Assembly: GCA_038061035.1 (NCBI GenBank)
Contig: JBBUAC010000023.1
Span: 1 to 37,823, forward strand
Reading direction: 5' to 3'
Origin: Patescibacteria group bacterium
Lineage (GTDB): Bacteria; Patescibacteriota; Minisyncoccia; Phycocordibacterales; UBA9973
Length of the DNA stretch: 37,823 nt
Shown here in pieces: positions 2,285-37,752 of this stretch (the first letter of the stretch is position 1; each line of letters begins with the position of its first letter). Below the pieces are notes generated by a model. The model searched no databases. It was not told the DNA's origin and saw only the letters and a list, made by a program, of their open reading frames with translations. The position numbers were made by a program, and so were the translations under genes.

Positions 2285-3421
2285 GTGTATATAAGAATTA
2301 TTAAAAAATCTATAAAAAACCATTTATTTAAGAAAAAAATCATTATTTTATATGGTCCTAGACAAGTTGGCAAAACAACATTAGTTAAAGAATTACTAGA
2401 AGAATTTAATGGCGAAAAATTATATATTTCCTGCGATATCCCATCAAGAAGAGCTTTAATTATAGGTCCAGAACCAGCAATTTTAAAACAAAATTTTGGA
2501 AATGCAAAATTAGTAATTATAGATGAAGCTCAATTGATAGAAAATATTGGAGTAATTTTAAAGGTTTTTGTTGATACTTATCCAGATATACAAATAATAG
2601 CTACTGGTTCAAGCTCTTTTGATCTAGCAAACAAAATTCGTGAACCATTAACGGGTAGAGCGTTTGAGTATATGCTTTATCCACTATCTTATGAAGAAAT
2701 AGCTTCAAAAAATAACTTTACAAAACAAGACCAAGGGGGTTTTCGTATGAGATTTGGCTGGTACCCTGGTATATCGGAATCTATACAAGATGCTACAGAA
2801 CAGCTTGAAATTTTACAAAACAATACTTTATATAAAGATATATTTACTCTTGAACAAATAAAAAAGCCAAAAGTTCTACAAGATATCGTATTGCAATTAG
2901 CATACCGCATCGGTACTGTTATTAGTGTGCAAAACTTGGCTGATGAAATAAAAACAACTCCAAAAACAGTTGAGAGGTATATAGATTTATTAGAGAAAAT
3001 GTTTGTATTAATTCGTATTTATCCATATTCAAGAAATCCTAGTAATGAAAGAAAAAAGGGTTATAAGGTATATTTTATAGATATAGGTATCCGTAATAGT
3101 ATTATTAAAGACCACAAAGCCCTAAACTTACGCAATGATATAGGTGCACTTTTTGAAAATTATTTTATAATGGAAAGAATAAAATATTTATCAAATAATT
3201 TTATTTTTACTAATAAATATTTCTGGCAAAACTATTTACAAGAAGAAGTAGATTATATAGAAGAAAAAGATGGAATACTCACAGCTTTTGAATGTAAATA
3301 TACAGAAAGGTCTAGTAAATCATTGTATTTATTCCAAAATACTTATAAAGAAAGTGTGGTAAAAATAATTAGTCAAAAAAATTATCAAGATTTTATAAAA
3401 AACAATGATATAATAAGTTGA
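2285..3421 (+). CDS. AAA+ ATPase, AAA_14 + DUF4143 architecture (COG1373-like), paralog 1
   Basis: Walker A LYGPRQVGKTTL, Walker B LVIIDEAQ, ATGSSS motif. It resembles the ORF at 19418-20533 along its full length. GTG start, TGA stop. Confidence 0.8.
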   Translation: MYIRIIKKSIKNHLFKKKIIILYGPRQVGKTTLVKELLEEFNGEKLYISCDIPSRRALIIGPEPAILKQNFGNAKLVIIDEAQLIENIGVILKVFVDTYPDIQIIATGSSSFDLANKIREPLTGRAFEYMLYPLSYEEIASKNNFTKQDQGGFRMRFGWYPGISESIQDATEQLEILQNNTLYKDIFTLEQIKKPKVLQDIVLQLAYRIGTVISVQNLADEIKTTPKTVERYIDLLEKMFVLIRIYPYSRNPSNERKKGYKVYFIDIGIRNSIIKDHKALNLRNDIGALFENYFIMERIKYLSNNFIFTNKYFWQNYLQEEVDYIEEKDGILTAFECKYTERSSKSLYLFQNTYKESVVKIISQKNYQDFIKNNDIIS

Positions 3422-5363: not shown

Positions 5364-6497
5364 TTAATTTTCCTCTAATTTTTTCAAGTACTTTTCTGCT
5401 TCCCTTATTTCTATTCCATTTACTATCCTTTCTAATCTCAAATTTTTTACGACTTGGATTCCTTTTAATTTATATTTTTGGGCAAAATAGCTCAACGTAT
5501 CCGAAACCTTATTATCACTAAGTTTCACTTCCACTATTTGATCCACAATATTTTCCTCATTATATACAGCAAAGTCAACTTCTTTATTTTCTTTAGTCTT
5601 TAAAAAACCGAGACTGTGCTTTTTCCCTGTTTTATCTGTTTTTATGACTGTGTGTTTATATAAAGCTAGGGCGACTAGATTCTCAAATCGTACCCCTTCA
5701 TTATTAATTACACCATAATCAAAAAAGTAAATCTTTGGTTCTTTTAAAATAGAGCGGTTTATTTTGTGAGTGTATGGTTTTATGATAAATACAATATATA
5801 ATGCTTCTAATATAGCTATATATTTCTTGACTGTAACACTAGAAATACCAACATCTCGTGCGATAGCACTATAAGAGATAGGGGAGCCGACTTTCGTTTT
5901 TAGTAAATCATAAATCAATCTCACAGTATTCACTTTATCTATTTCTTCAAAATCAAGCACGTCTTGTCTAAGCAGAATATCTATATATACACCTCTCCAA
6001 TGATCTGCTATATTTGTATCTTCTGCCAAAAGTGGTTCAGGAAAACCACTTCTTTCTAATAAGGTGTCTAATGACACTTCTTTATACACATTTTGTAATT
6101 CAGCTAAAGTAAAAGGCATCAAATGATGTAGTCTAAATCTACCAGCCATAGAATCTCCTGCATGTCTGTGTGCGTTCATACTAGCACTACCTGTAATCAA
6201 AATATGTAAATCGTCCTTTTTTGTATCAAAAATTCCCTTTAGGTGTGTTTTCCATTTAGGCATTTTATGGATTTCATCAAAAACAAGCAGATCTACATCT
6301 GGCAACCAGTTGTAATTTTTCATAACCTCTTTATGTTCAATATTATCGTAATTCAAATAAAGTGGATTCTTGTATGATTTCATTATTTCCTTGGCTAGCC
6401 ATGTCTTACCTACTTGTCTTGGACCCACAATAAATACCATTTTCTTTTTTAAATCAGACAATACGTTTTCTTTTACTTTTCTTTGTATATTTTTCAT
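5364..6497 (-). CDS. AAA+ ATPase, AAA_14 + DUF4143 (COG1373-like), paralog 2 (divergent subfamily)
   Basis: Walker A VGPRQVGKTWL, Walker B LLVFDEIHK, ITGSAS motif. Confidence 0.8.
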   Translation of the reverse strand: MKNIQRKVKENVLSDLKKKMVFIVGPRQVGKTWLAKEIMKSYKNPLYLNYDNIEHKEVMKNYNWLPDVDLLVFDEIHKMPKWKTHLKGIFDTKKDDLHILITGSASMNAHRHAGDSMAGRFRLHHLMPFTLAELQNVYKEVSLDTLLERSGFPEPLLAEDTNIADHWRGVYIDILLRQDVLDFEEIDKVNTVRLIYDLLKTKVGSPISYSAIARDVGISSVTVKKYIAILEALYIVFIIKPYTHKINRSILKEPKIYFFDYGVINNEGVRFENLVALALYKHTVIKTDKTGKKHSLGFLKTKENKEVDFAVYNEENIVDQIVEVKLSDNKVSDTLSYFAQKYKLKGIQVVKNLRLERIVNGIEIREAEKYLKKLEEN

Positions 6498-17184: not shown

Positions 17185-17303
17185 TTTTTTATCTATAATA
17201 TTAATTAATAATAGATTTTAATTTTTAAAAACGACCATTTTAAAAACCATTTTTAAAAATATATTCTTTTGTATCAAAATATAAAAGTCTTGGCAATAAA
17301 ATA

Positions 17304-17312
17304 TGTGGATAA
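17304..17312. promoter_or_regulatory. Perfect DnaA box TGTGGATAA outside oriC
   Basis: Exact reverse complement of the consensus TTATCCACA. The 14-mer TATGTGGATAACTT also occurs at 20575-20588. Confidence 0.5.
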
Positions 17313-17318
17313 CTTATA

Positions 17319-17889: not shown

Positions 17890-18426
17890 TTATTCCGCAT
17901 TAGTAAATACATCTTGCACATCATCGTTGTTTTCTAAGTCATCTACTAGTTTTTCGAGCAATACTAATTCTTCATCAGTCGGGGAGGTGGTTGTTTGTGG
18001 TATCCACACAAGTCCTTCAGGTGATATTTCTTTTTGAAAAGCCCAAACTACGGATCCTATACCAGCCAAGGCTGTACCATTTTCAACTAATATATGTTTT
18101 ACATCTTGAGCAGTTCTGTTTTTATTGTCTGTAAGAGTTTCTATTATTACACCCACTCCTCCTGGCCCATAGGCTTCATACATTATATTTTCCATACTTA
18201 CATTAGAATATGTTGCTTTTTTCACCGCTCTTTCAATAATCTCTTTCGGCATATTTACTTTTTTTGCTTTTTCTATAGCACTACGAAGTCCTGGAGAATC
18301 TTTACCACCTGAGAGCCTAGCTTCCACAGATATATATTTTACTAATTTAGAAAAAATCTTACTTTTTTTAGCATCAGTAATTCCTTTTTTATGTTTTATT
18401 TGCGACCAACGATTATGACCAGACAT
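17890..18426 (-). CDS. yebC: YebC/PmpR family DNA-binding regulator (short form)
   Basis: MSGHNRWSQIKHKKG...NRT motif. ATG at 18426 is preferred over the upstream GTG at 18447. Confidence 0.85.
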   Translation of the reverse strand: MSGHNRWSQIKHKKGITDAKKSKIFSKLVKYISVEARLSGGKDSPGLRSAIEKAKKVNMPKEIIERAVKKATYSNVSMENIMYEAYGPGGVGVIIETLTDNKNRTAQDVKHILVENGTALAGIGSVVWAFQKEISPEGLVWIPQTTTSPTDEELVLLEKLVDDLENNDDVQDVFTNAE

Positions 18427-18616
18427 TTTTAGATAAATCTTCCACACCAGTAAGTTCCCAAGAATCCATCTCGTATTTCAAATCGATGCGGTCTTTAATT
18501 CTTTTCATATAATAGAGAACTGAATTGAGTATTAAATCATTTGTTGAAATACCCAAACTGATTGAAACTTGTTTAATTTCTTTTTTAATTTTTTGAGGTA
18601 TAATCAATGTAGTCAT
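18413..18616 (-). CDS. Small ribbon-helix-helix-like protein, overlapping the yebC start by 14 nt
   Basis: N-terminal IIPQKIKKEIKQVSISLGISTNDLILNSVLYYMKRI. TGATACAAT lies 6 nt upstream of the ATG. Confidence 0.45.
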   Translation of the reverse strand: MTTLIIPQKIKKEIKQVSISLGISTNDLILNSVLYYMKRIKDRIDLKYEMDSWELTGVEDLSKNVWS

Positions 18617-18742: not shown

Positions 18743-19387
18743 ATGCAACCTAATAAAGATTTTCAACCCGTATGCACAGGAATACTTTTTAGTAGAGAAA
18801 TAGATAATAAAGATTTACTTGATGGTCTTGTGGATTTATCAAACAGAGGTTTTTTGACTATTTCTGATGAAAGTAATGAAGGTAACTAAAATAAAGTTGT
18901 AAGAGTTAAAGTAATTAGAAATATAAATTATTATGAAGCTGATAGAAATCTTGATCGAATTTTACTTGAATTGTTTTTAGGGGGTGATAAATCTGTATTT
19001 CTCGGAAAAGAGTTTAGTTTTAATGAAAGAATTAAATATAATCGTAGAAATAAAAAACATTACAAAAAACTTCATAAAGAAGCATTACATCAATTGGTTC
19101 TTCGGGGATATTTAAATATAGATTTACCCTTACCACTTAACACACCTTATTTTGGGGATGTGATTATGGGTATTTTTTTTATAGGTTTATTACTAATAGT
19201 TTTTGGTATAGGTATGTCTATCTTATTAGAAGATACCTTTTATATAATATTACTATTTCCTGGTTTTGTATTATCTTTAATAAGTACTATTTTTATTTAT
19301 TTAGGTACCAAAACAAATTATCCCTTAACTCAAAAAGGTCAAGAATTTATTAATGAGCTTAAAAATAAAAATATAAACAGTGCCTAG
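18743..19387 (+). pseudogene. Remnant of a DUF2207-like membrane protein gene: C-terminal half only, interrupted by an in-frame TAA
   Basis: The ATG at 18743 and the ORF at 18971-19387 are in the same frame, separated by TAA at 18887-18889. The joined translation ...DLLDGLVDLSNRGFLTISDESNEGN*NKVVRVKV...ILLELFLGG... followed by two TM segments fits the DUF2207 C-terminal pattern. Confidence 0.5.
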
Positions 19388-19417: not shown

Positions 19418-20533
19418 TTAAGTGTTTAATATATCTGTTATGTTTTTTGAAGTTATCAAAGTGACAGGAGTATCTGGATATGCATTTTTCCAGGCACGGG
19501 TTTTGATTGAAGTTTCACTCCACTTACATTCAAAAGCTTCTAATTTTTCATATGTTTCTTCTACTAAATCAATCTCACTGCCATCTTTGGTTCGCCAAAA
19601 ATATGGACGAGTATGGTTACCTGATTTTTGATATTGTTTTATTCTTTCACTTATAAAAAAGTTTTCAAACAAAGACCCCTTATCATGTCTTTTGTCTAAA
19701 GAATTAAAATTATCAAGAAGAGCATTTTTTATTCCAGTATCATAAAAGAATATTTTTTCAAATCTAGTAACTTCATTACGTTTGTTTTTAGAAAGTGGCG
19801 GAAGTCTAAATATTATAAATGCTTGTTCTAATATTTTTATATATTGCATAATTGTTTGTCTGCTAACTTCCAATTTTTGAGCTATCTCATTATACGAAAC
19901 TTGGTTACCTGATTGTAAAGCAAGTAATCTAACTAATTTTTCTAAAATAATTGGCTTTCTAACTGTATCTATTTTTAAAATATCTCTAAAAAGATAATCA
20001 TTTGCAATAATTTTTAAATCAAAAGAGGGGTTTGTTGAAGAGATGATTCCAGGATACATTCCATACAATATTCTTTGTTCTAAAAGTCTCTTAGATTCCA
20101 ATTCACCAACAGTGTTTGAGTATTCTTGATATGAAATTGGATAAAGCATAAATGGTATATTCCTACCAGTTAAAGGTTCTAAAATTTTATTTGCCAACTC
20201 AAAAGAAGAAGAACCTGTAGCTATTATTTTTATTTCTGGATAAGTGTCGTGAAGAAGTTTTAAAGAAAGACCGATATTTTCCACTCTTTGGGCTTCATCA
20301 AGTACTACAAAAGTAGCATTTTTTATAAAAGCTTTCATTGCAGAAGAGGTTTTATTTGAAAAAGCTTCACGAATATCAGGTTCATCACACGAAAGGTAAA
20401 GACCATTGTGTTCTTTGATAATTTCTTTTACAAGTGTTGTTTTGCCAACTTGTCTAGCTCCATAGAGTATGGTAATTCTCGGGTCATTTAAAGATTCAAT
20501 TATTTTATTTTTTAACCATCTTTTTATAAGCAT
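19418..20533 (-). CDS. AAA+ ATPase, AAA_14 + DUF4143 (COG1373-like), paralog 3
   Basis: Walker A LYGARQVGKTTL, Walker B FVVLDEAQ, ATGSSS motif. TATAAT (20541-20546 on the plus strand as ATTATA) lies 7 nt upstream of the ATG. Confidence 0.85.
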   Translation of the reverse strand: MLIKRWLKNKIIESLNDPRITILYGARQVGKTTLVKEIIKEHNGLYLSCDEPDIREAFSNKTSSAMKAFIKNATFVVLDEAQRVENIGLSLKLLHDTYPEIKIIATGSSSFELANKILEPLTGRNIPFMLYPISYQEYSNTVGELESKRLLEQRILYGMYPGIISSTNPSFDLKIIANDYLFRDILKIDTVRKPIILEKLVRLLALQSGNQVSYNEIAQKLEVSRQTIMQYIKILEQAFIIFRLPPLSKNKRNEVTRFEKIFFYDTGIKNALLDNFNSLDKRHDKGSLFENFFISERIKQYQKSGNHTRPYFWRTKDGSEIDLVEETYEKLEAFECKWSETSIKTRAWKNAYPDTPVTLITSKNITDILNT

Positions 20534-20576
20534 ACTTATTATTATATGCCTAAAAAAGCAATTGTAAATCCAATTA

Positions 20577-20585
20577 TGTGGATAA
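20577..20585. promoter_or_regulatory. Perfect DnaA box TGTGGATAA outside oriC
   Basis: Exact consensus, with the same flanks as the box at 17304-17312. Confidence 0.5.
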
Positions 20586-20624
20586 CTTTTTTAGTTTTTC
20601 TTTTTATAATTTTTAACTTTATAA

Positions 20625-20702
20625 TTAATCTTTTTCAATTCCTAAATGTTCATAGGCTTTATTTGTAGCAATGCGTTCGCGGGCGGTGAGTTCGGGAAGC
20701 GG
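20625..20702 (-). pseudogene. Orphan fragment encoding a RuvB C-terminus
   Basis: The minus strand translates to PLPELTARERIATNKAYEHLGIEKD*. Compare the intact RuvB end TPRGRMATQKAYEHLGFDLPEN*. Nucleotide similarity to 21331-21400 is roughly 75% by eye. Confidence 0.7.
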
Positions 20703-20704
20703 GG

Positions 20705-20959
20705 TTATTGGTCGGTGTATTGATGAAGAACTGAGGTCACAAGTGTCTGATATGGTATACCTTTTTCTACTGCGCGGACTTTAAGCTTCGCAAGGTCACG
20801 CAAAGATAGGCGGATATTGATATTTTTGGTTTTGTCGAGTGTGGATTTAGCAATTGACTGGAATCTTTTTAATTCACTTTTTGGCCTAGTAATCATTTTG
20901 TCATTTTCAATCGCGCTTAATATTTCTTCTTCTTCTTTTGTTAGTTCATAGTATTTCAT
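20705..20959 (-). CDS. brnA: BrnA family antitoxin
   Basis: C-terminal INIRLSLRDLAKLKVRAVEKGIPYQTLVTSVLHQY. Confidence 0.8.
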   Translation of the reverse strand: MKYYELTKEEEEILSAIENDKMITRPKSELKRFQSIAKSTLDKTKNINIRLSLRDLAKLKVRAVEKGIPYQTLVTSVLHQYTDQ

Positions 20960-20960
20960 A

Positions 20961-21245
20961 TTATTTTTTCTTTTTATTAATAATAAATTTTTTCGTCATT
21001 TTTCTGCTTGGGATAATTGTTTTCAAAAATATTTTTTCGTCGTCTTCTACAAAAGGAACAATATAAGCGTATTCTCTTATCTCGACAATAAGGACGCTTT
21101 GTGAAGGATATCTTGTCTTGTTTGGATGATCAGATATCTCAATCGTACTACCATTTTGGATTGCTAGGACAACTTCTTCAAATCCTACATTTCGTTCTGC
21201 TTTGAGTTTATCATTTTTTTCAATATTCCAATCAAAATACTTCAT
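20961..21245 (-). CDS. brnT: BrnT family (DUF497/COG2929) toxin
   Basis: YFDWNIEKNDKLKAERNVGFEEVV N-terminal signature. The toxin precedes the antitoxin with a 1-nt gap. TATACT lies 6 nt upstream of the ATG. Confidence 0.7.
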   Translation of the reverse strand: MKYFDWNIEKNDKLKAERNVGFEEVVLAIQNGSTIEISDHPNKTRYPSQSVLIVEIREYAYIVPFVEDDEKIFLKTIIPSRKMTKKFIINKKKK

Positions 21246-21327
21246 ACTTAGAGTATATACAAATGATATTATATGTCAATAACTGCTATAGATAGCAGTA
21301 TCATAGTCTTCTTTATTAAAAAATGTT

Positions 21328-22332
21328 TTAGTTTTCCGGAAGATCAAATCCCAAATGCTCATATGCTTTTTGTGTAGCCATACGTCCACGAGGTGTACGC
21401 TCCAAAAGACCGAGTTGTATTAAATATGGTTCTGTCACTTCTTCTATGGTTGCTTCTTCTTCTGAAGTTGCGGCACTAATTGTTTTTAAACCAACAGGGC
21501 CACCGTTAAATTTTTCAATAAGTATTTCTAAAAATTTTCTGTCTGAAGAATTTAAACCAATTTCATCAATAGCGAGCATAGTAAGTGCTTCTCCTACTGT
21601 TTTTTTGTCTAAATTCTTTTTATGTACTTGTGCAAAATCTCGTACTCTTTTTAAAAAATAATTTGCCATACGAGGAGTAAACCTACTTCTTTTTGCTATT
21701 TCTTCTAGTGCATCTTCTTCTAATTTTGTTTCAAGCAATTTACTTGATCTTTGTATTATTTTTCCAATTTCTTCATTTGAATAAAATTCTAAACGAAAAA
21801 CTCCACCTGAGAATCGCGAACGAAGAGGGGATGAGACCAATGCTACACGAGTCGTCGCAGCTATTAGTGTAAAAGGTGGAAGATCGAGTTGTATTGTTCT
21901 GGCAGAAGGACCTTTTCCTATTATGATATCCAATACACCGGATTCCATTGCTGGATACAATATTTCTTCAACCATTTTATTTAATCTATGAATTTCATCT
22001 ATAAATAAAATATTACCACTTGAGAGATTTGTGAGAATAGATGCGAGGTCACCTACTTTTTCAATAGCAGGTCCTGAAGTTATTTTCATTTGTCTTCCTG
22101 TTTCATTTGCTATAAGGTGCGCTAATGTTGTTTTTCCTAATCCAGGTGGCCCATAAAAAAGTATGTGTTCAGGAATATGCCCACGCTCCTTGGCTGCCAA
22201 AAGAAGTATTTTAACATTGTCTTTTATGTGTTTTTGGCCAACATATTCATCCCATTTAGTAGGACGAAGGGTTTGATCTAAGTAGGTATCACCAACACCA
22301 TTTTGATTTTTTTTGTTTTGTTTACTTGACAT
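21328..22332 (-). CDS. ruvB: Holliday junction branch migration helicase RuvB
   Basis: Walker A GPPGLGKTTLA, Walker B LFIDEIHRL, arginine finger region. Confidence 0.97.
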   Translation of the reverse strand: MSSKQNKKNQNGVGDTYLDQTLRPTKWDEYVGQKHIKDNVKILLLAAKERGHIPEHILFYGPPGLGKTTLAHLIANETGRQMKITSGPAIEKVGDLASILTNLSSGNILFIDEIHRLNKMVEEILYPAMESGVLDIIIGKGPSARTIQLDLPPFTLIAATTRVALVSSPLRSRFSGGVFRLEFYSNEEIGKIIQRSSKLLETKLEEDALEEIAKRSRFTPRMANYFLKRVRDFAQVHKKNLDKKTVGEALTMLAIDEIGLNSSDRKFLEILIEKFNGGPVGLKTISAATSEEEATIEEVTEPYLIQLGLLERTPRGRMATQKAYEHLGFDLPEN

Positions 22333-22366
22333 TGTTTCTAATATATGCTACATTATAAAAGCTATG

Positions 22367-22384
22367 TTATCAACAGTATCCACA
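22367..22384. promoter_or_regulatory. Tandem DnaA-box-like pair upstream of ruvB
   Basis: TTATCAACA (22367-22375) is directly followed by GTATCCACA (22376-22384). Each has one mismatch to TTATCCACA. Confidence 0.4.
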
Positions 22385-22426
22385 TTATAACATTTGCTTG
22401 TTCTTTTATATAGGTATAATTAAAAG

Positions 22427-22581
22427 AGAGAAGGCATTAATCTCTAAGCAATCAGCCATCGGTTATATATATTTGCGTAGGACGCTCTGGTTTTTTTTAA
22501 AATACTGGGTCTATCCTTCAAAAATTTATTACTTTCTGGGCTTAGCCCTAAAAGGATTGTTTAGAGATTAATGCTTTTTTT
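22427..22581 (+). ncRNA. Candidate structured small RNA of about 150 nt, class unknown
   Basis: TTGCTT/TATAAT-like promoter, with the -10 at 22415-22420. A 20-bp closing helix pairs 22434-22453 with 22555-22574 (one G-U pair). T7 follows immediately. There is no downstream plus-strand gene. Confidence 0.4.
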
Positions 22582-22613
22582 GTGCCTCTACGGCACATCC
22601 GCCGAAGAGGCGG
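22581..22613. repeat. Two adjacent GC-rich mini-hairpins
   Basis: TGTGCC-TCTAC-GGCACA (22581-22597) and CCGCC-GAAGA-GGCGG (22599-22613). The string CGCCGAAG..GGCGGAAC recurs at 25584-25598 in tsaE. Confidence 0.65.
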
Positions 22614-22617
22614 AACT

Positions 22618-23277
22618 TCATTTTATTTTATATTTTTCATAATTTAAACAAAAATTTTTACCACCTTTTTTAAAATCATTATAAGCTTCATCTATGATTT
22701 CCAGCACTTCGTTTGAATTTTTTACATAAAAAGCCAACTTATAATCATCTTCTTTTAAATATTCTTTAGCCAAAAGTTCATCTTTTATCCAACGAAGAAG
22801 TCCTTCCCACTCATCTCCTATTAGTATTATAGGAATATCACATATATGATGCACCTGGACTAATTGCCAAGTATAAAATAACTCAAGAAGAGTTCCAAGT
22901 CCGCCGGGCTCTACAATAACTGCATTTGATAAAAGCATAAACTCATCTAATCTTCGGGAAAAAATATTAAGTTTTTTTCTGTACTCAACGCCTTCATTGA
23001 ATTTTTGGTTCCAAGGTAAGTTAATTCCTATTCCTACAGAATATGCATTACTTCCACTTATGGTGGTGCCTATGACATGCCCTTCATTTGCCGCCTTCAT
23101 TAGTCCTGGTCCGCCACCTGTCAAGACATCTATTCCTCTTTCTCCAAGCATAGCGGCCAAATGCTTCACTCTCCTATAAGTGTCATCTTCTTCTTCTATT
23201 TTTGAACTTCCAAATATAGCTACTCTAAAGTGATTATTTTTATTTTTTTTAAATTCTTTAAAATTTTCTGGATCCAT
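22618..23277 (-). CDS. LOG family (TIGR00730) nucleotide phosphoribohydrolase-like protein
   Basis: GGGPGLMKAANEG and PGGLGTLLELF motifs. Confidence 0.85.
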   Translation of the reverse strand: MDPENFKEFKKNKNNHFRVAIFGSSKIEEEDDTYRRVKHLAAMLGERGIDVLTGGGPGLMKAANEGHVIGTTISGSNAYSVGIGINLPWNQKFNEGVEYRKKLNIFSRRLDEFMLLSNAVIVEPGGLGTLLELFYTWQLVQVHHICDIPIILIGDEWEGLLRWIKDELLAKEYLKEDDYKLAFYVKNSNEVLEIIDEAYNDFKKGGKNFCLNYEKYKIK

Positions 23278-23289
23278 AATTTTTATTAA

Positions 23290-24996
23290 TTATTCCTCAA
23301 ATAAATCAACCACGCTTTGTACTTCTTCAAAAGAAGTAATACCGTTTAATATTTTTACCACACCATCTTGTCTCATAGAAAGTATTCCTTGTGTTTTTGC
23401 CACTTTTTTTATTTCACGCTCACTTGGATTTTCTGATATTATTTTTTCAATAGCCTCGTCGGTTTTTATTGCTTCAAAAATTCCAATTCTGCCTTTATAT
23501 CCAGTCATATTACATTTTTCACAACCAATGTGCATAAATAATTTCAAAGAATTTTCCACAGTATTTTTATTTATATTGTATTTTTCAAGATTTTTTCCTT
23601 CTTCTTCCACTCCTTTTATAATTAATTTTATTACATCCATTTCTTTTTCATCTGCTTCTTTTTCTATTTTACAATATACGCAAAGCTTACGTACTAATCT
23701 TTGAGCGATAGACAATGACAATGCTGAGACCATTATTTTAGGATTAATACTAAGGTCTATTAATCGTGGTATAACACCAGCTGCGTTATTTGTGTGTAAT
23801 GTGGAAAAAACCAAGTGCCCAGTCAAAGCTGATTGTATCGCAACTTTTGCTGTTTCAGCGTCACGAATTTCTCCTACCATAATTACATCTGGGTCTTGAC
23901 GCAACGCAGCACGTAATCCATCCAGAAATCCATAATCTCTCCTCGCTTCTGTTTGGGTTTGTGTTATCCCTTCTAAACGATATTCAACAGGGTCTTCAAT
24001 GGTTATGATATTTATATCTGGAGAATATATTTTTTTTAGGAATGCATATAAAGTAGTAGTTTTTCCACTTCCTGTTGGTCCTGTTACTAAAATCAATCCA
24101 TTGGGTTTTGATATTTCTTCTTCTATAATAGAAAAAAGATATGGTTCAATTCCTATACTATTTAATTCTATTTGTATAGATTTTGGGTCCAATATTCTCA
24201 TAACAATAGATTCACCATATGATCCTGGAATAAGGGAAGTACGAATACTTATTTCATCACCACCTTCTGTAATACTAAAACGACCATCTTGAGGTTTTTT
24301 TGATGTTAATTTCATTCCAGAGAGAAGTTTTATTCGTGAATTGAGTAAATTATATGTATCAATATCAAAAGACTCCACATCTTGAAGAATTCCATCTAAT
24401 CTAAGTCGAAGTCTTCCTTTGTCCTTTTCTGGTTCTATGTGCACATCTGATGCATTTATGGCTATAGCTCCGGCCAATATTATTTCAAGTAAACGAGAAA
24501 TCTTATGAGCCTTTTTTTCCTCTAATGCTTTTTTAATAAGTTTTGAAATGTCTTGCATTTGATTTATGTTTTTTGCAGTATCGCGAAGTATTTCGGCTTC
24601 TATGTCGAGTCCTCCGACCTTTGAACTTTCTGCCATGGAAAGTTCTTTATATCTATCCCATACTTTTTCTATACTTCCCATAGATGTCATATAAAAAATA
24701 GGGTCTAAACTTTTTCTTTCCATTTCATCTTTTAATTTAGAAATTAATTCTGGGGTGGGAGAGCGAAGTGCAATATAAATATTTTTACCACTTAATTTAA
24801 AAGGAGCGATTTTCATATTACGCGCATCGTTTTCCGATATAGCTCGAAGTGCTTCATTGTCTATACCTAGATTATATAAATTTACATAAGGAAGATCGTA
24901 TTTTGATTCAGCTAAAAATTTCACCAATTGTTCTTCTTCCAACTTATGCAAATCGTCTAATTGTTTATTTTGTTTTTCTTCATCAAAGTCGGACAT
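23290..24996 (-). CDS. pilB: GspE/PilB family secretion/type IV pilus assembly ATPase
   Basis: Walker A GPTGSGKTTTLY, Asp box, Walker B VIMVGEIRD, His box LVFSTLHTN, and tetracysteine CVYC...CEKC. TATAAT lies 7 nt upstream of the ATG. Confidence 0.9.
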   Translation of the reverse strand: MSDFDEEKQNKQLDDLHKLEEEQLVKFLAESKYDLPYVNLYNLGIDNEALRAISENDARNMKIAPFKLSGKNIYIALRSPTPELISKLKDEMERKSLDPIFYMTSMGSIEKVWDRYKELSMAESSKVGGLDIEAEILRDTAKNINQMQDISKLIKKALEEKKAHKISRLLEIILAGAIAINASDVHIEPEKDKGRLRLRLDGILQDVESFDIDTYNLLNSRIKLLSGMKLTSKKPQDGRFSITEGGDEISIRTSLIPGSYGESIVMRILDPKSIQIELNSIGIEPYLFSIIEEEISKPNGLILVTGPTGSGKTTTLYAFLKKIYSPDINIITIEDPVEYRLEGITQTQTEARRDYGFLDGLRAALRQDPDVIMVGEIRDAETAKVAIQSALTGHLVFSTLHTNNAAGVIPRLIDLSINPKIMVSALSLSIAQRLVRKLCVYCKIEKEADEKEMDVIKLIIKGVEEEGKNLEKYNINKNTVENSLKLFMHIGCEKCNMTGYKGRIGIFEAIKTDEAIEKIISENPSEREIKKVAKTQGILSMRQDGVVKILNGITSFEEVQSVVDLFEE

Positions 24997-30067: not shown

Positions 30068-30545
30068 GTTTTTAAAAGAAAATATTGTAATACTTCATAA
30101 TATACGAAGTATAGAAAATGTTGGTGCAATGTTTCGTACTTGTGACGCTGTAGGTATAGATAAAATATATTTATCTGGATACACTCCGACACCACTTGAT
30201 AGATTTGGCAGAAAAAGAAAAGATTTAGCAAAGTCTGCACTAGGGGCAGAGGAATTTGTGCCATGGGAGCAGAAGAAAAATTTTTTTTCTTTAATAAAAA
30301 AACTTAAAATACAGGGTTTTAATATTATAGGGATAGAGCAAGATAAAAATTCTGTGAATTATAAAAAATTAAATTTTAAATTAAAAGATAAAAATGTTTT
30401 TATTGTTGGGTCAGAAGTTACAGGTATATCAAAAAATATTTTAACAAAGTGTAGTGTTATAGTTGAGATACCAATGAAAGGTAAAAAAGAATCTCTTAAT
30501 GTATCTGTAGCACTGGGTGTAGTTTTATTTTCTAGTATAATATAA
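30057..30545 (+). CDS. SpoU/TrmH family RNA 2'-O-methyltransferase
   Basis: NIRSIENVGAMFRTCDAVG, GSEVTGIS, IPMKGKKESLNVSVALGVVLF (SPOUT knot motifs). Confidence 0.85.
   Translation: MVNKFLKENIVILHNIRSIENVGAMFRTCDAVGIDKIYLSGYTPTPLDRFGRKRKDLAKSALGAEEFVPWEQKKNFFSLIKKLKIQGFNIIGIEQDKNSVNYKKLNFKLKDKNVFIVGSEVTGISKNILTKCSVIVEIPMKGKKESLNVSVALGVVLFSSII
30487..30536 (+). repeat. 50-bp direct repeat, left copy (3' end of the trmH-like gene)
   Basis: AAGAATCTCTTAATGTATCTGTAGCACTGGGTGTAGTTTTATTTTCTAGT is identical to 37663-37712. Confidence 0.95.
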
Positions 30546-30550
30546 AGATT

Positions 30551-37585: not shown

Positions 37586-37662
37586 GTGCGGAGTATTAAT
37601 GATACTACATATAAAGTAACTATAGTTAAAATAGTGTAGTAAGGACGGTTCCTGCTATAACT

Positions 37663-37712
37663 AAGAATCTCTTAATGTATCTGTAGCACTGGGTGTAGTT
37701 TTATTTTCTAGT
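37663..37712 (+). repeat. 50-bp direct repeat, right copy (orphan 3' end of the trmH-like gene)
   Basis: Identical to 30487-30536, and continues TTA TAA in the same frame. Confidence 0.95.
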
Positions 37713-37720
37713 TTATAAAA

Positions 37721-37752
37721 AACTTACAGAAATACAAACTTTTCTGTAAGTT
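37721..37752 (+). terminator. Intrinsic terminator following the orphan trmH 3' end
   Basis: 12-bp stem AACTTACAGAAA / TTTCTGTAAGTT with an 8-nt loop, then a T-rich tail. Confidence 0.75.

Follow-up and report, generated by a model that had tools for sequence, protein, structure and literature searches.

At rhs, CDI and T6SS effector-immunity loci, orphaned gene ends are known from C-terminal (3'-end) displacement (Kirchberger 2017, PMC5361080). As cited in that paper, Jackson 2009 ascribed 3'-end displacement to homology-facilitated illegitimate recombination, and this process has been proposed to leave orphaned 3' ends at T6SS and rhs loci (PMC5361080). Restriction-modification units have been described to insert with long target duplication (Furuta 2010, PMC2853133; Nobusato 2000, as cited in PMC2853133), with near-identical repeats in the defining papers (e.g., 44/46 or 417/423) and 93-100% identity in published cases (PMC2853133). 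A further step of "release and re-invasion" was proposed by Furuta et al. 2010 and is said never to have been observed (PMC2853133). As regards routes of DNA uptake, experiments have demonstrated that Saccharibacteria can be naturally competent (PMC10633639).

Here we describe a toxin-antitoxin cassette behind ruvB in a window of 37,823 nucleotides, which is the whole stretch of DNA that was analyzed (Patescibacteria group bacterium, assembly GCA_038061035.1, contig JBBUAC010000023.1). To our knowledge, little has been documented of how toxin-antitoxin and other small defence or addiction cassettes move when they bring no recombinase. The gap is most acute for the ultra-small Patescibacteria, in which genome change is attributed mainly to DNA uptake. 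The locus offers a clean, dated footprint of such movement: a cassette flanked by two ruvB ends whose histories as working genes were demonstrably separate.

The cassette and the second ruvB end

The preliminary description of this DNA had a brnTA cassette lying between two ends of ruvB, one intact and the other diverged; both the layout (Table 1) and the 70% DNA identity of the two ends bear this out. The insert measures 0.6 kb and contains brnT and brnA only, which form a putative BrnT/BrnA-type type II toxin-antitoxin pair. The toxin reached 31.3 bits over the full profile of Pfam BrnT_toxin (PF04365), below the cut-off of 34.5, and the antitoxin 30.4 bits against CopG_antitoxin (PF12441), above the cut-off of 28. 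The two genes are an adjacent toxin-first bicistron with 1 nt from the brnT stop to the brnA start, the same pairing is found in homologous loci, and brnA is of full length, ending in TDQ as its relatives do (TDQT, TDRV).

Table 1. Features of the ruvB locus, in the order in which the minus strand is read
Feature	Position	Strand	Remarks
ruvB, intact	21328..22332	-	334 aa; ends ...LLERTPRGRMATQKAYEHLGFDLPEN and stop; Pfam RuvB_N 9.8e-70, AAA_lid_4, RuvB_C 8.1e-27
Resident ruvB tail	21328..21408	-	Homologous to the vestige (66-nt core 21343-21408), then LPEN and stop; from alignments
Spacer, ruvB stop to cassette	21284..21327	-	Holds palindrome CTGCTATCTATAGCAG (about 21282-21297) just upstream of the -35 box
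Predicted brnT promoter	21252..21279	-	TTGACA-16-TATACT; 11/12 consensus positions; left border of conserved cassette
brnT-like toxin gene	20961..21245	-	94 aa; PF04365 E=2.6e-7
brnA-like CopG/RHH antitoxin gene	20705..20959	-	84 aa; PF12441 E=6.8e-7
Junction filler	20701..20704	-	CCCC, brnA stop to start of ruvB homology; ungapped comparison with relatives' ruvB
Orphan ruvB tail (vestige)	20625..20700	-	76 nt, i.e. 25 codons and TAA; without start codon
AT-rich spacer, vestige stop to ATPase module	20589..20624	-	36 nt; similarity to G044 ATPase paralogue ends at 20587
AAA_14/DUF4143/HTH ATPase gene	19418..20588	-	Pfam; own predicted promoter 20541-20568; upstream motif TTATCCACA at 20575-20588
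Decayed DUF2207 C-terminal domain gene, two pieces	18743..19387	+	PF20990 profile positions 9-52 and 140-205
Orphan ORF	18413..18616	-	67 aa; overlaps yebC start; no homologue in relatives' loci
yebC	17890..18428	-	yebC or ruvC directly after ruvB in most relatives

Homologues of brnT (51-74% identical) lie in other contexts, brnA has 320 homologues of which the best non-self one is 80% identical, and related brnTA cassettes occupy unrelated contexts. A 76%-identical brnA was found downstream of ruvB in another genus member (L068), and a related cassette (69-71%) adjoins a tyrosine recombinase gene in L074. The brnT promoter is kept in five related cassettes, with similarity ending about 5 nt upstream of the -35 box, and the spacer between ruvB and the cassette did not resemble the DNA that flanks other brnTA cassettes.

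The relatives supply the ruvB loci without the cassette for which the preliminary description had called: none of about 54 has brnTA or a second tail behind ruvB, one tail being present in each, and in 31/54 the next core gene (yebC or ruvC) starts at most 150 nt from the ruvB stop. The brnTA insert behind ruvB thus appears to be specific to this lineage. The same arrangement was recovered on more than 10 contigs from several groundwater samples at 99.1-100% identity and is fixed in the groundwater population; exact-protein look-ups returned this arrangement and no other. The site downstream of ruvB is variable across the genus. On the far side of the locus, the ATPase gene is a sporadic multi-copy accessory module (21/212 genus genomes, with 8 matches in G044), and its DNA similarity to the G044 paralogue takes in the upstream motif TTATCCACA.

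The second ruvB end, hereafter the vestige, lies 0.63 kb downstream of the intact one and adjoins the brnA stop codon. The joint reads TAA+CCCC+GCTT, with ruvB homology beginning at about 20700 in the ungapped comparison with relatives, and from 20700 to 20625 the minus strand translates as (P)LPELTARERIATNKAYEHLGIEKD followed by a stop, in a frame that differs from that of brnA. Its kinship with the RuvB C-terminus, claimed at the outset from inspection of the letters, proved significant. Queried with tblastn, the vestige matched the end of RuvB in the same window (64% over 22 aa, E=3.5e-5) and RuvB ends in all relatives examined, at up to 82% protein identity. Queried with blastn against 212 genus genomes, the vestige region matched ruvB 3' ends (up to 85% over 59 nt, E=2.9e-12), and the top 16 matches were placed at RuvB ORF ends in the correct register. 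The pair of ruvB tail and vestige also came up (E=1.6e-4) in a tail scan that took in the genome's 415 ORFs. The sole Pfam family matched was RuvB_C (PF05491; profile positions 57-71 of 72, E=0.07), and the vestige ends with a stop codon at the place homologous to the RuvB stop. The fragment is short and the Pfam E-value is by itself weak, as would be expected if an AT-rich intergenic stretch resembled RuvB by chance; this reading, to which we give practically no credence, is refuted by the tblastn and in-register blastn matches and by the 18/22 residues shared with the tails of two relatives, G214 and G023, in addition to the homologous stop.

The vestige corresponds to a clade-type tail, LLERTARGRIATNKAYEHLGFE..., except for L>P, R>L, G>E and F>I, four substitutions that are inactivating. 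The conserved R-T-x-R-G-R of RuvB reads L-T-A-R-E-R. It contains no in-frame ATG, GTG or TTG, and its 25 codons cover the RuvB_C domain incompletely. To judge from these features, it is a dead, non-coding pseudogene fragment that spans the final 25 codons of what was once a RuvB gene. A search for function in the vestige returned no terminator, no ORF and no fold beyond that of shuffled sequences (z=+1.5), no Rfam family was found across the window except one tRNA, and the vestige sequence is unchanged in the strain variant L115.

The 5' part of the fragment and the adjacent 3' half of brnA are indeed GC-rich, as had been noticed: the 150 nt at 20650-20799 have 0.48 GC, in the top 0.36% of such segments in a genome of 30.2% GC. 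As a sign of foreign origin, this richness holds for brnA only, whose GC3 is 0.29-0.37 versus a genome mean of 0.18, the 3' half (0.37) being in the top 2.3% of the genome. This suggests import of the cassette. In the vestige, the GC-rich 5' part is the ERT(A/P)RGR codon run and carries no foreign signal, because the same run is similarly GC-rich in the resident end (0.44 vs 0.41) and in the relatives. An inserted hairpin repeat or foreign DNA as the source of this segment was rejected on the same grounds.

Divergence and clade signature of the two ruvB ends

The identity of about 75% first reported for the two ends is matched by the mean column identity of a MAFFT alignment (75%); in the codon-aligned core it falls to 70% (46/66), with 64% at the protein level. 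Their longest exact match is about 6 nt, and no identical core is common to them. The differences comprise Sd=10 of S=15.3 synonymous and Nd=10 of N=50.7 non-synonymous sites, which gives a saturated pS of 0.65 and a pN/pS of 0.30, as compared with 0.20 for pairs of functional ruvB genes. Third codon positions differ at 13/22, as saturated as between species. Since the differences are mainly synonymous, most of the divergence arose while both tails belonged to working genes. When duplication in place with one neutral copy was simulated under a simple codon model, Sd of at least 10 with Nd of at most 10 was obtained in at most 0.3% of runs, and in 0.1-2.4% of runs across variants of omega, kappa and ancestor. 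Because the in-place model reproduces the pattern so seldom, one end is taken to have come from another lineage, which both alternatives of the preliminary description presuppose. The two ruvB ends are thus heterologous, the vestige being no recent copy of the resident end, and the proposal that the scar marks recombination at the ruvB 3' end is upheld. Trees and AU tests on the 66-nt tails (p=0.39, 0.15 and 0.12) have no power; the two tails as sisters were not rejected (p=0.39), 66 nt offering little phylogenetic power.

In the tree of PilB, encoded by a gene that flanks the locus, (G000,G044) had a support of 97 and was sister (94) to (G198,(G023,G214)). The RuvB tails of the clade so defined read [TS]ARGRIATNKAYEHLGF[ED] with a short end, and G023 also has K at the fourth residue. 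The 18/22 positions that the vestige shares with G214 and G023 leave four mismatches to G214, all at family-invariant residues. Vestige similarity was higher to the own clade than to others in protein (0.78 vs 0.64, p=0.0008) and DNA (p=0.03), in a test built on four related, non-independent genomes, while the resident tail had no own-clade preference (Mann-Whitney p=0.46-0.61); against G044 alone, both scored 0.73. The vestige is also closer to the orthologues of other species (80% DNA) than to the resident end (70%). We conclude that the vestige bears the signature of its own clade and that the resident tail does not.

The core of the resident RuvB (aa 65-300) has G044 as tied-closest relative (90.7%), and therefore the mismatch with the own clade is limited to the tail. 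A seemingly more distant position of the G044 RuvB was due to a mis-extended 5' end and gave way to the tie on equal columns. The resident-type tail (TPRGRMATQ...LPEN) ends seven codons before that of the most similar relatives (...LPEN vs ...LPENLQKKLI). A remnant of the long tail (LQKKLI) was sought upstream of yebC and downstream of the vestige, and only chance-level matches in AT-rich DNA were obtained. In a collection of 5.8 billion proteins, no RuvB more than 90% identical and no BrnA more than 80% identical was found outside the same population. No breakpoint in ruvB was visible in sliding-window DNA identity, shared rare nucleotides or DNA trees, because the DNA signal is saturated across the genus; the PilB control had the same saturation, and the RuvB protein tree was a polytomy.

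Origin of the arrangement

We favour, with moderate confidence, the reading that foreign DNA with a ruvB 3' part and brnTA was recombined in, anchored by ruvB homology, and displaced the lineage's own tail downstream. This was one of two alternatives raised in the preliminary description, and the PilB tree and clade signature speak for it, as they identify the vestige with the old tail of this lineage. For the direction of the event, for the route of uptake and for how the joint was made, we infer the following. The vestige would be the former ruvB 3' end of this lineage, of the type ...TARGRIATNKAYEHLGFE.... DNA of another genus member, comprising a ruvB 3' part and a self-promoted brnT-brnA, would have entered the cell, plausibly by natural transformation, and would have been integrated by the host RecA, with one side crossing over within ruvB by homology and the other joining illegitimately a few bases past the brnA stop, about 75 nt before the ruvB stop of the recipient. 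Such a process would be homology-facilitated illegitimate recombination, i.e., "3'-end displacement"; a single crossover of a circular copy with a ruvB tail would lead to the same picture. The ruvB gene would have stayed intact with its imported tail, the addictive toxin-antitoxin pair would have become fixed, and the old tail, stranded downstream, would have lost its function and taken on four inactivating substitutions since. RecA, ComEC, DprA and PilB are present in the genome. The seven-codon-shorter end of the resident tail is not predicted by this model.

The heterologous tails would also fit if the vestige were the foreign piece, that is, if a fragment of a related genome running from a ruvB 3' end into the AAA_14/DUF4143 ATPase had been inserted illegitimately behind a pre-existing brnTA, with the resident ruvB wholly native. 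The sporadic, multi-copy ATPase module has its best homologue (67%) in the closest relative, G044, so that it and the vestige could have come from one clade-level donor; only 36 nt lie between the two, and the resident RuvB core looks native. However, none of 11 ATPase paralogue loci examined in relatives adjoins ruvB or a piece of it, illegitimate insertion would have had to occur twice, separately, at one spot, and the native tail would have had to diverge at each of the four clade-signature positions, all of which the imported piece retained. We regard this origin as rather unlikely. Still more so, and in our view highly improbable, is site-specific integration, in which an integrase island with an attP mimicking the ruvB 3' end supplied a replacement end and later lost most of its content, including the integrase. 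The order of gene end, island and second gene end is the classic attL/attR picture, and the related brnTA in L074 (69-71%) lies beside a tyrosine recombinase gene, but the longest exact match of about 6 nt provides no identical core and the second tail adjoins the brnA stop, with no room for att flanks. Neither Phage_integrase (PF00589) nor Resolvase (PF00239) was matched in the assembly, which is 86% complete, so that a recombinase could sit in the missing part; the same profiles had matches in 14 and 12 of 14 control genomes. The earlier suggestion that an element had targeted the ruvB 3' end needs correction in that no self-mobile element is visible, there being neither such a match nor an identical core; the assembly has four such scars with no integrase or resolvase gene found.

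These scars bear on the remaining alternative, in which brnTA was inserted behind ruvB with duplication of the last ~75 nt in place, the downstream copy decayed and the resident tail was possibly later subjected to allelic replacement. Three more accessory inserts of this genome lie between the tail of a gene and a repeat of that tail. The genes are trmH (91% over 65 nt, including a core of 50 nt that is perfect), one that is csaA-like (~90%) and one that is pyk-like (~83%). Long target duplication is known from restriction-modification units, for the most part in species that are competent (PMC2853133), and the AU test (p=0.39) allows sister tails. Against it, the synonymous excess was reached in only 0.1-2.4% of simulations, the vestige is nearer to orthologues of other species (80% DNA) than to its supposed sister (70%), 13/22 third positions differ even though brnA GC3 still departs from that of the genome, and published repeats are near-identical (e.g., 44/46). 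An origin of the ruvB scar by this mode is accordingly unlikely in our judgement. The diverged tail pairs have pN/pS values of 0.30 (ruvB), 0.21 (pyk-like) and 0.16 (csaA-like), and this functional-gene divergence in three pairs points to inter-lineage transfer and not to duplication in place; comparison of the pyk-like tail with relatives was too divergent (~50%). Tentatively, accessory units such as toxin-antitoxin pairs, an HUH-type gene and a restriction islet might spread between species as "tail hitch-hikers". Each unit would be carried along with the terminal 50-160 nt of a conserved host gene and inserted by the host RecA where that gene ends. The gene would go on working with the tail that it had received, and its former tail would be left stranded. 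If true, tail hitch-hiking would be the "release and re-invasion" step of Furuta et al. 2010 (PMC2853133).

Comparison with known systems

The comparison of synonymous and non-synonymous changes separates an imported replacement end from a target duplication in place and is applicable to the many similar scars that are coming to light. For annotation, the locus is a caution: the 76 nt amount to a pseudogene fragment, and an essential repair gene may carry a chimeric 3' end.

With described BrnT/BrnA systems the cassette shares the toxin-first bicistron, a sigma-70-type promoter of its own, a toxin of the small RNase-type fold family, an RHH/CopG antitoxin and a patchy distribution consistent with horizontal spread; it differs in that its toxin scores just under the Pfam cut-off. 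Integrase islands and CIME-like elements at gene 3' ends also keep the gene intact through a replacement 3' end and have a partial second end at the far border, whereas here no integrase was found in the island or the assembly, no identical core exists and the insert is only 0.6 kb long.

With long target duplication, the locus has in common a small accessory unit without mobility genes behind a gene, direct repeats longer than 30 bp (here 66-76 nt), a single copy at the empty site of relatives and a host with competence genes. It differs in its passenger, a toxin-antitoxin pair, and in that the ruvB repeats are only 70% identical and diverged under purifying selection; the other three scars of the genome (83-100% identical) fit this class better than the ruvB scar does.

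In 3'-end displacement, a module enters by recombination in the upstream, conserved part of a gene and brings a new 3' end with one or more downstream genes; the old 3' end is pushed downstream and keeps its orientation. The ends are heterologous, and the process does without a dedicated recombinase. All of this is shared with the favoured reading of the ruvB locus. Unlike the described cases, the gene here is a housekeeping DNA-repair helicase with a conserved and not a polymorphic tail, the passenger is a type II toxin-antitoxin pair in place of a toxin tip and immunity gene, and there is one displaced end without a cognate partner gene and without an array, no second ruvB fragment having been found in the window or in relatives. 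The ruvB scar is a footprint of a known type, and one that recurs in this genome.

The orphan ruvB end and its surroundings

The homology to the RuvB C-terminus claimed in the preliminary description for the fragment behind the brnT (toxin-like) and brnA (CopG antitoxin-like) cassette was borne out by tblastn, blastn, a tail scan and Pfam. By tblastn the fragment is 64% identical over 22 aa to the RuvB end of the window and 59-82% to the RuvB ends of every relative, and by blastn against 212 genomes of the genus the region matched ruvB 3' ends, with positions confirmed; identity reached 85% over 59 nt (E=2.9e-12). A blind scan that used the C-terminal 35 residues of each of the 415 ORFs in the source genome, G000, recovered the pair, and RuvB_C was the sole Pfam family matched, at the correct profile positions. 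The fragment has no start codon and reads L-T-A-R-E-R at the conserved motif R-T-x-R-G-R; neither a terminator nor a structure exceeding shuffled controls was detected in it. It is thus a dead RuvB remnant (hereafter, the vestige).

Features of the ruvB locus and of comparable gene-tail repeats in the source genome
Feature	Position	Strand	Remarks
pilB	23290-24996	-	window
LOG-family gene	22618-23277	-	window
ruvB	21328-22332	-	window
brnT	20961-21245	-	window
brnA	20705-20959	-	window
Filler CCCC	between brnA and vestige	-	window; four bases
Vestige	20700-20625	-	76 bases; reads (P)LPELTARERIATNKAYEHLGIEKD*; frame differs from that of brnA
AT-rich spacer	between vestige and ATPase gene	-	window; 36 bases
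AAA_14/DUF4143 ATPase gene	19418-20588	-	window; own promoter
Decayed DUF2207 gene	18743-19387	+	beyond ATPase gene, before 67-codon ORF
67-codon orphan ORF	between decayed DUF2207 gene and yebC	-	window
yebC, then ruvC	after 67-codon orphan ORF	-	window
trmH tail repeat	30482-30546 and 37658-37722		window
pyk-like gene	C30:2387-3193	-	contig outside window; whole scar C30:1544-3193
Orphan tail of pyk-like gene	C30:1544-1630		last 28 codons
csaA-like gene, ORF and tail copy	C33:8975-10395		contig outside window

The source assembly, from a member of the Patescibacteria, is 461 kb, 86% complete and 30% GC. Since the identical arrangement, at 99.1-100% identity, occurs on more than ten contigs of several groundwater metagenome samples, it is real and fixed in the population. 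In one strain variant (L115) likeness to the window ends at 22420, and a rve-type transposase gene lies upstream instead. Another (L060, 98-99% identical, low contig coverage) has about 130 extra bases in ruvB at window ~21625-21649, so that two ORFs of 306 and 83 aa are called; these bases may be a short-repeat insertion or an assembly error. The LOG-ruvB spacer (22333-22617, 285 nt) is conserved at the DNA level with the congeneric genomes G044 and G214 (74-78%), contains an inverted repeat with arms of 23 nt (22431-22453 and 22555-22577) that are 91% complementary, and matched no Rfam family.

Within the ruvB-yebC insert, two adjoining ORFs that match DUF2207_C positions 9-52 and 140-205 are one decayed gene. 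The window carries three AAA_14/DUF4143/HTH ATPase paralogues (2285-3421, 5364-6497 and 19418-20533; 29-42% mutual identity) of a family found in only 21 of the 212 genomes, yet with eight matches in G044. The motif AAGTTATCCACATA, with a perfect DnaA-box core, occurs at 17302-17315 and 20575-20588, directly past the stop codon of ruvC in most members of the genus and ~45-55 nt upstream of AAA_14/DUF4143 ATPase paralogues, the one in G044 included; it resembles a conserved element with a regulatory or boundary role more than it does origin boxes.

Ancestry of the two ruvB ends

The two ends are divergent, as had been proposed, at a measured DNA identity of 70% (46/66) instead of about 75%, and the resident end of the intact gene is less similar to the vestige than are orthologues in other species, which reach 80% over these 66 nt. 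The pair shows 10 synonymous differences per 15.3 sites and 10 non-synonymous per 50.7 (pS 0.65, pN 0.20, ratio 0.30); functional ruvB tails have a mean pN/pS of 0.20 over 1128 pairs. If one copy of an in-place duplicate drifted neutrally, non-synonymous changes would be expected to dominate. Simulated in-place duplications combined 10 or more synonymous with 10 or fewer non-synonymous differences in no more than 0.3% of runs at any divergence, and in 0.1-2.4% of runs when resident constraint, transition bias and ancestor were varied. Given the synonymous excess and its rarity in the simulations, the bulk of the divergence dates from a time when both tails were in working genes. By this codon evidence the tails stem from different lineages, a separation that a 66-nt tree is without power to confirm (AU test on sister tails, p=0.39).

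In the tree of the flanking PilB, the source genome groups with G044 (support 97), sister (94) to G198, G023 and G214 of the same genus; for the LOG gene G044 is by far the closest, at 84% versus at most 66% in the others. The RuvB tails of these other clade members read [TS]ARGRIATNKAYEHLGF[ED] and have a short end, G023 also having K at the fourth residue. The vestige equals the tails of G214 and G023 at 18 of 22 positions each, and the four residues in which it departs from G214 (L>P, R>L, G>E, F>I) are all invariant ones, as expected of decay following loss of function. Preferential similarity of the vestige to the PilB-defined clade (protein p=0.0008, DNA p=0.03) was obtained with four genomes that are kin to each other. 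The resident tail (TPRGRMATQ...FDLPEN*) has no clade preference (p=0.46-0.61) and resembles tails of other subgroups, the resident RuvB core (aa 65-300) is tied-closest to G044 (90.7%), and against G044 alone vestige and resident tail score 0.73 each. No crossover point was seen within ruvB, where DNA saturation hides any, and no donor or empty site was found in databases. We infer, as the simplest reading, that the body of ruvB is native and its present tail imported, the native tail being stranded behind an imported cassette.

The downstream site and the cassette

The comparison of ruvB loci called for in the preliminary description covered ~54 relatives: yebC or ruvC is the next gene after ruvB, at a gap of up to 150 nt in 31 and 150-1275 nt in 17, and neither brnTA nor a second ruvB end is present there in any of them. 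The site downstream of ruvB is a hotspot. In G044 a Fic-family gene (HPFxDGNGR motif) lies between ruvB and yebC, and a metagenome contig from another member of the genus (L068) carries an IS30-like transposase, ruvB, a convergent Fic gene, a 5'-truncated brnT and an intact brnA 76% identical to that of the window, with no second ruvB end. The ruvB of G044, the closest relative (L052/L047), lacks codons 30-64, the P-loop start included, through a true deletion (pseudogene) or else a fault in the assembly. Similarity between the window and related brnTA cassettes elsewhere is confined to the region that runs from the -35 box to the stop codon of brnA, which defines the cassette as ~21283-20705.

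The GC peak described earlier is present (0.48 at 20650-20799, top 0.36% of windows), and its brnA part fits import. The GC of the vestige was ruled out as a sign of foreign origin, because what makes its 5' part GC-rich is the ERT(A/P)RGR codon run, which is equally GC-rich in the resident end (0.44 versus 0.41) and in relatives. GC3 is 0.37 in the 3' half of brnA (genome mean 0.18; 0.37 is reached by only 2.3% of coding windows) and 0.24 in brnT, and the closest brnTA cassettes sit on contigs of 36-42% GC. The brnA values fit imported DNA that has yet to ameliorate.

Integration and comparable scars

The proposed recombination at the ruvB 3' end, with the cassette between an intact and a diverged end, is supported in substance, the tails being heterologous. 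No tyrosine or serine recombinase was detectable in the 86% complete assembly, which does carry genes for RecA, ComEC, DprA and the type IV pilus, and Saccharibacteria have been demonstrated to be naturally competent (PMC10633639). We therefore favour an integration of taken-up DNA that was anchored by homology. One end of the incoming DNA would recombine within ruvB and the other would join illegitimately just past the stop codon of brnA, a position at which selection would preserve an intact antitoxin; the same picture would result from a single crossover with a circular copy that bore one tail. Once installed, the addictive pair would resist loss.

Other gene tails recur in the genome. The trmH tail repeat (65 nt, direct, 91% identical, perfect 50-nt core) brackets a 7.1-kb accessory islet, and a genome scan found the architecture of gene, accessory insert and second tail twice more. 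Behind the pyk-like gene, a scar of the ruvB type, come a PIN-domain toxin gene (PF01850) and a small ORF, located upstream on the opposite strand (a PIN/VapC-type pair), and then the orphan tail of the pyk-like gene (~83% DNA identity, pN/pS 0.21). Behind the csaA-like tRNA-binding gene (PF01588) come an ORF of 247 aa, IS200/RAYT-like by its PNHFHLY motif, a fragment of which had no Pfam match, and a tail copy of ~160 nt (~90% identical, pN/pS 0.16); identity is ~75% over the first 60 nt and ~96% over the remainder, a step that suggests a crossover within the repeat. Both tail pairs differ mostly at synonymous sites. In a PilM-like gene (C3:3597-4882), the last 17 codons recur exactly 102 nt downstream in the same orientation.

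Insertion with long target duplication is a published class (PMC2853133) that covers the near-identical tail repeats, whereas the ruvB ends lack such near-identity and are better fitted by 3'-end displacement. The ruvB vestige belongs to a known kind of recombination scar. The favoured route amounts to homology-facilitated illegitimate recombination, the process proposed to have orphaned 3' ends of genes in T6SS and rhs loci (PMC5361080). Distinctive of the ruvB scar are the essential repair gene as target, a host genome with competence genes and no detectable integrase, and the codon-level evidence for heterologous ends.
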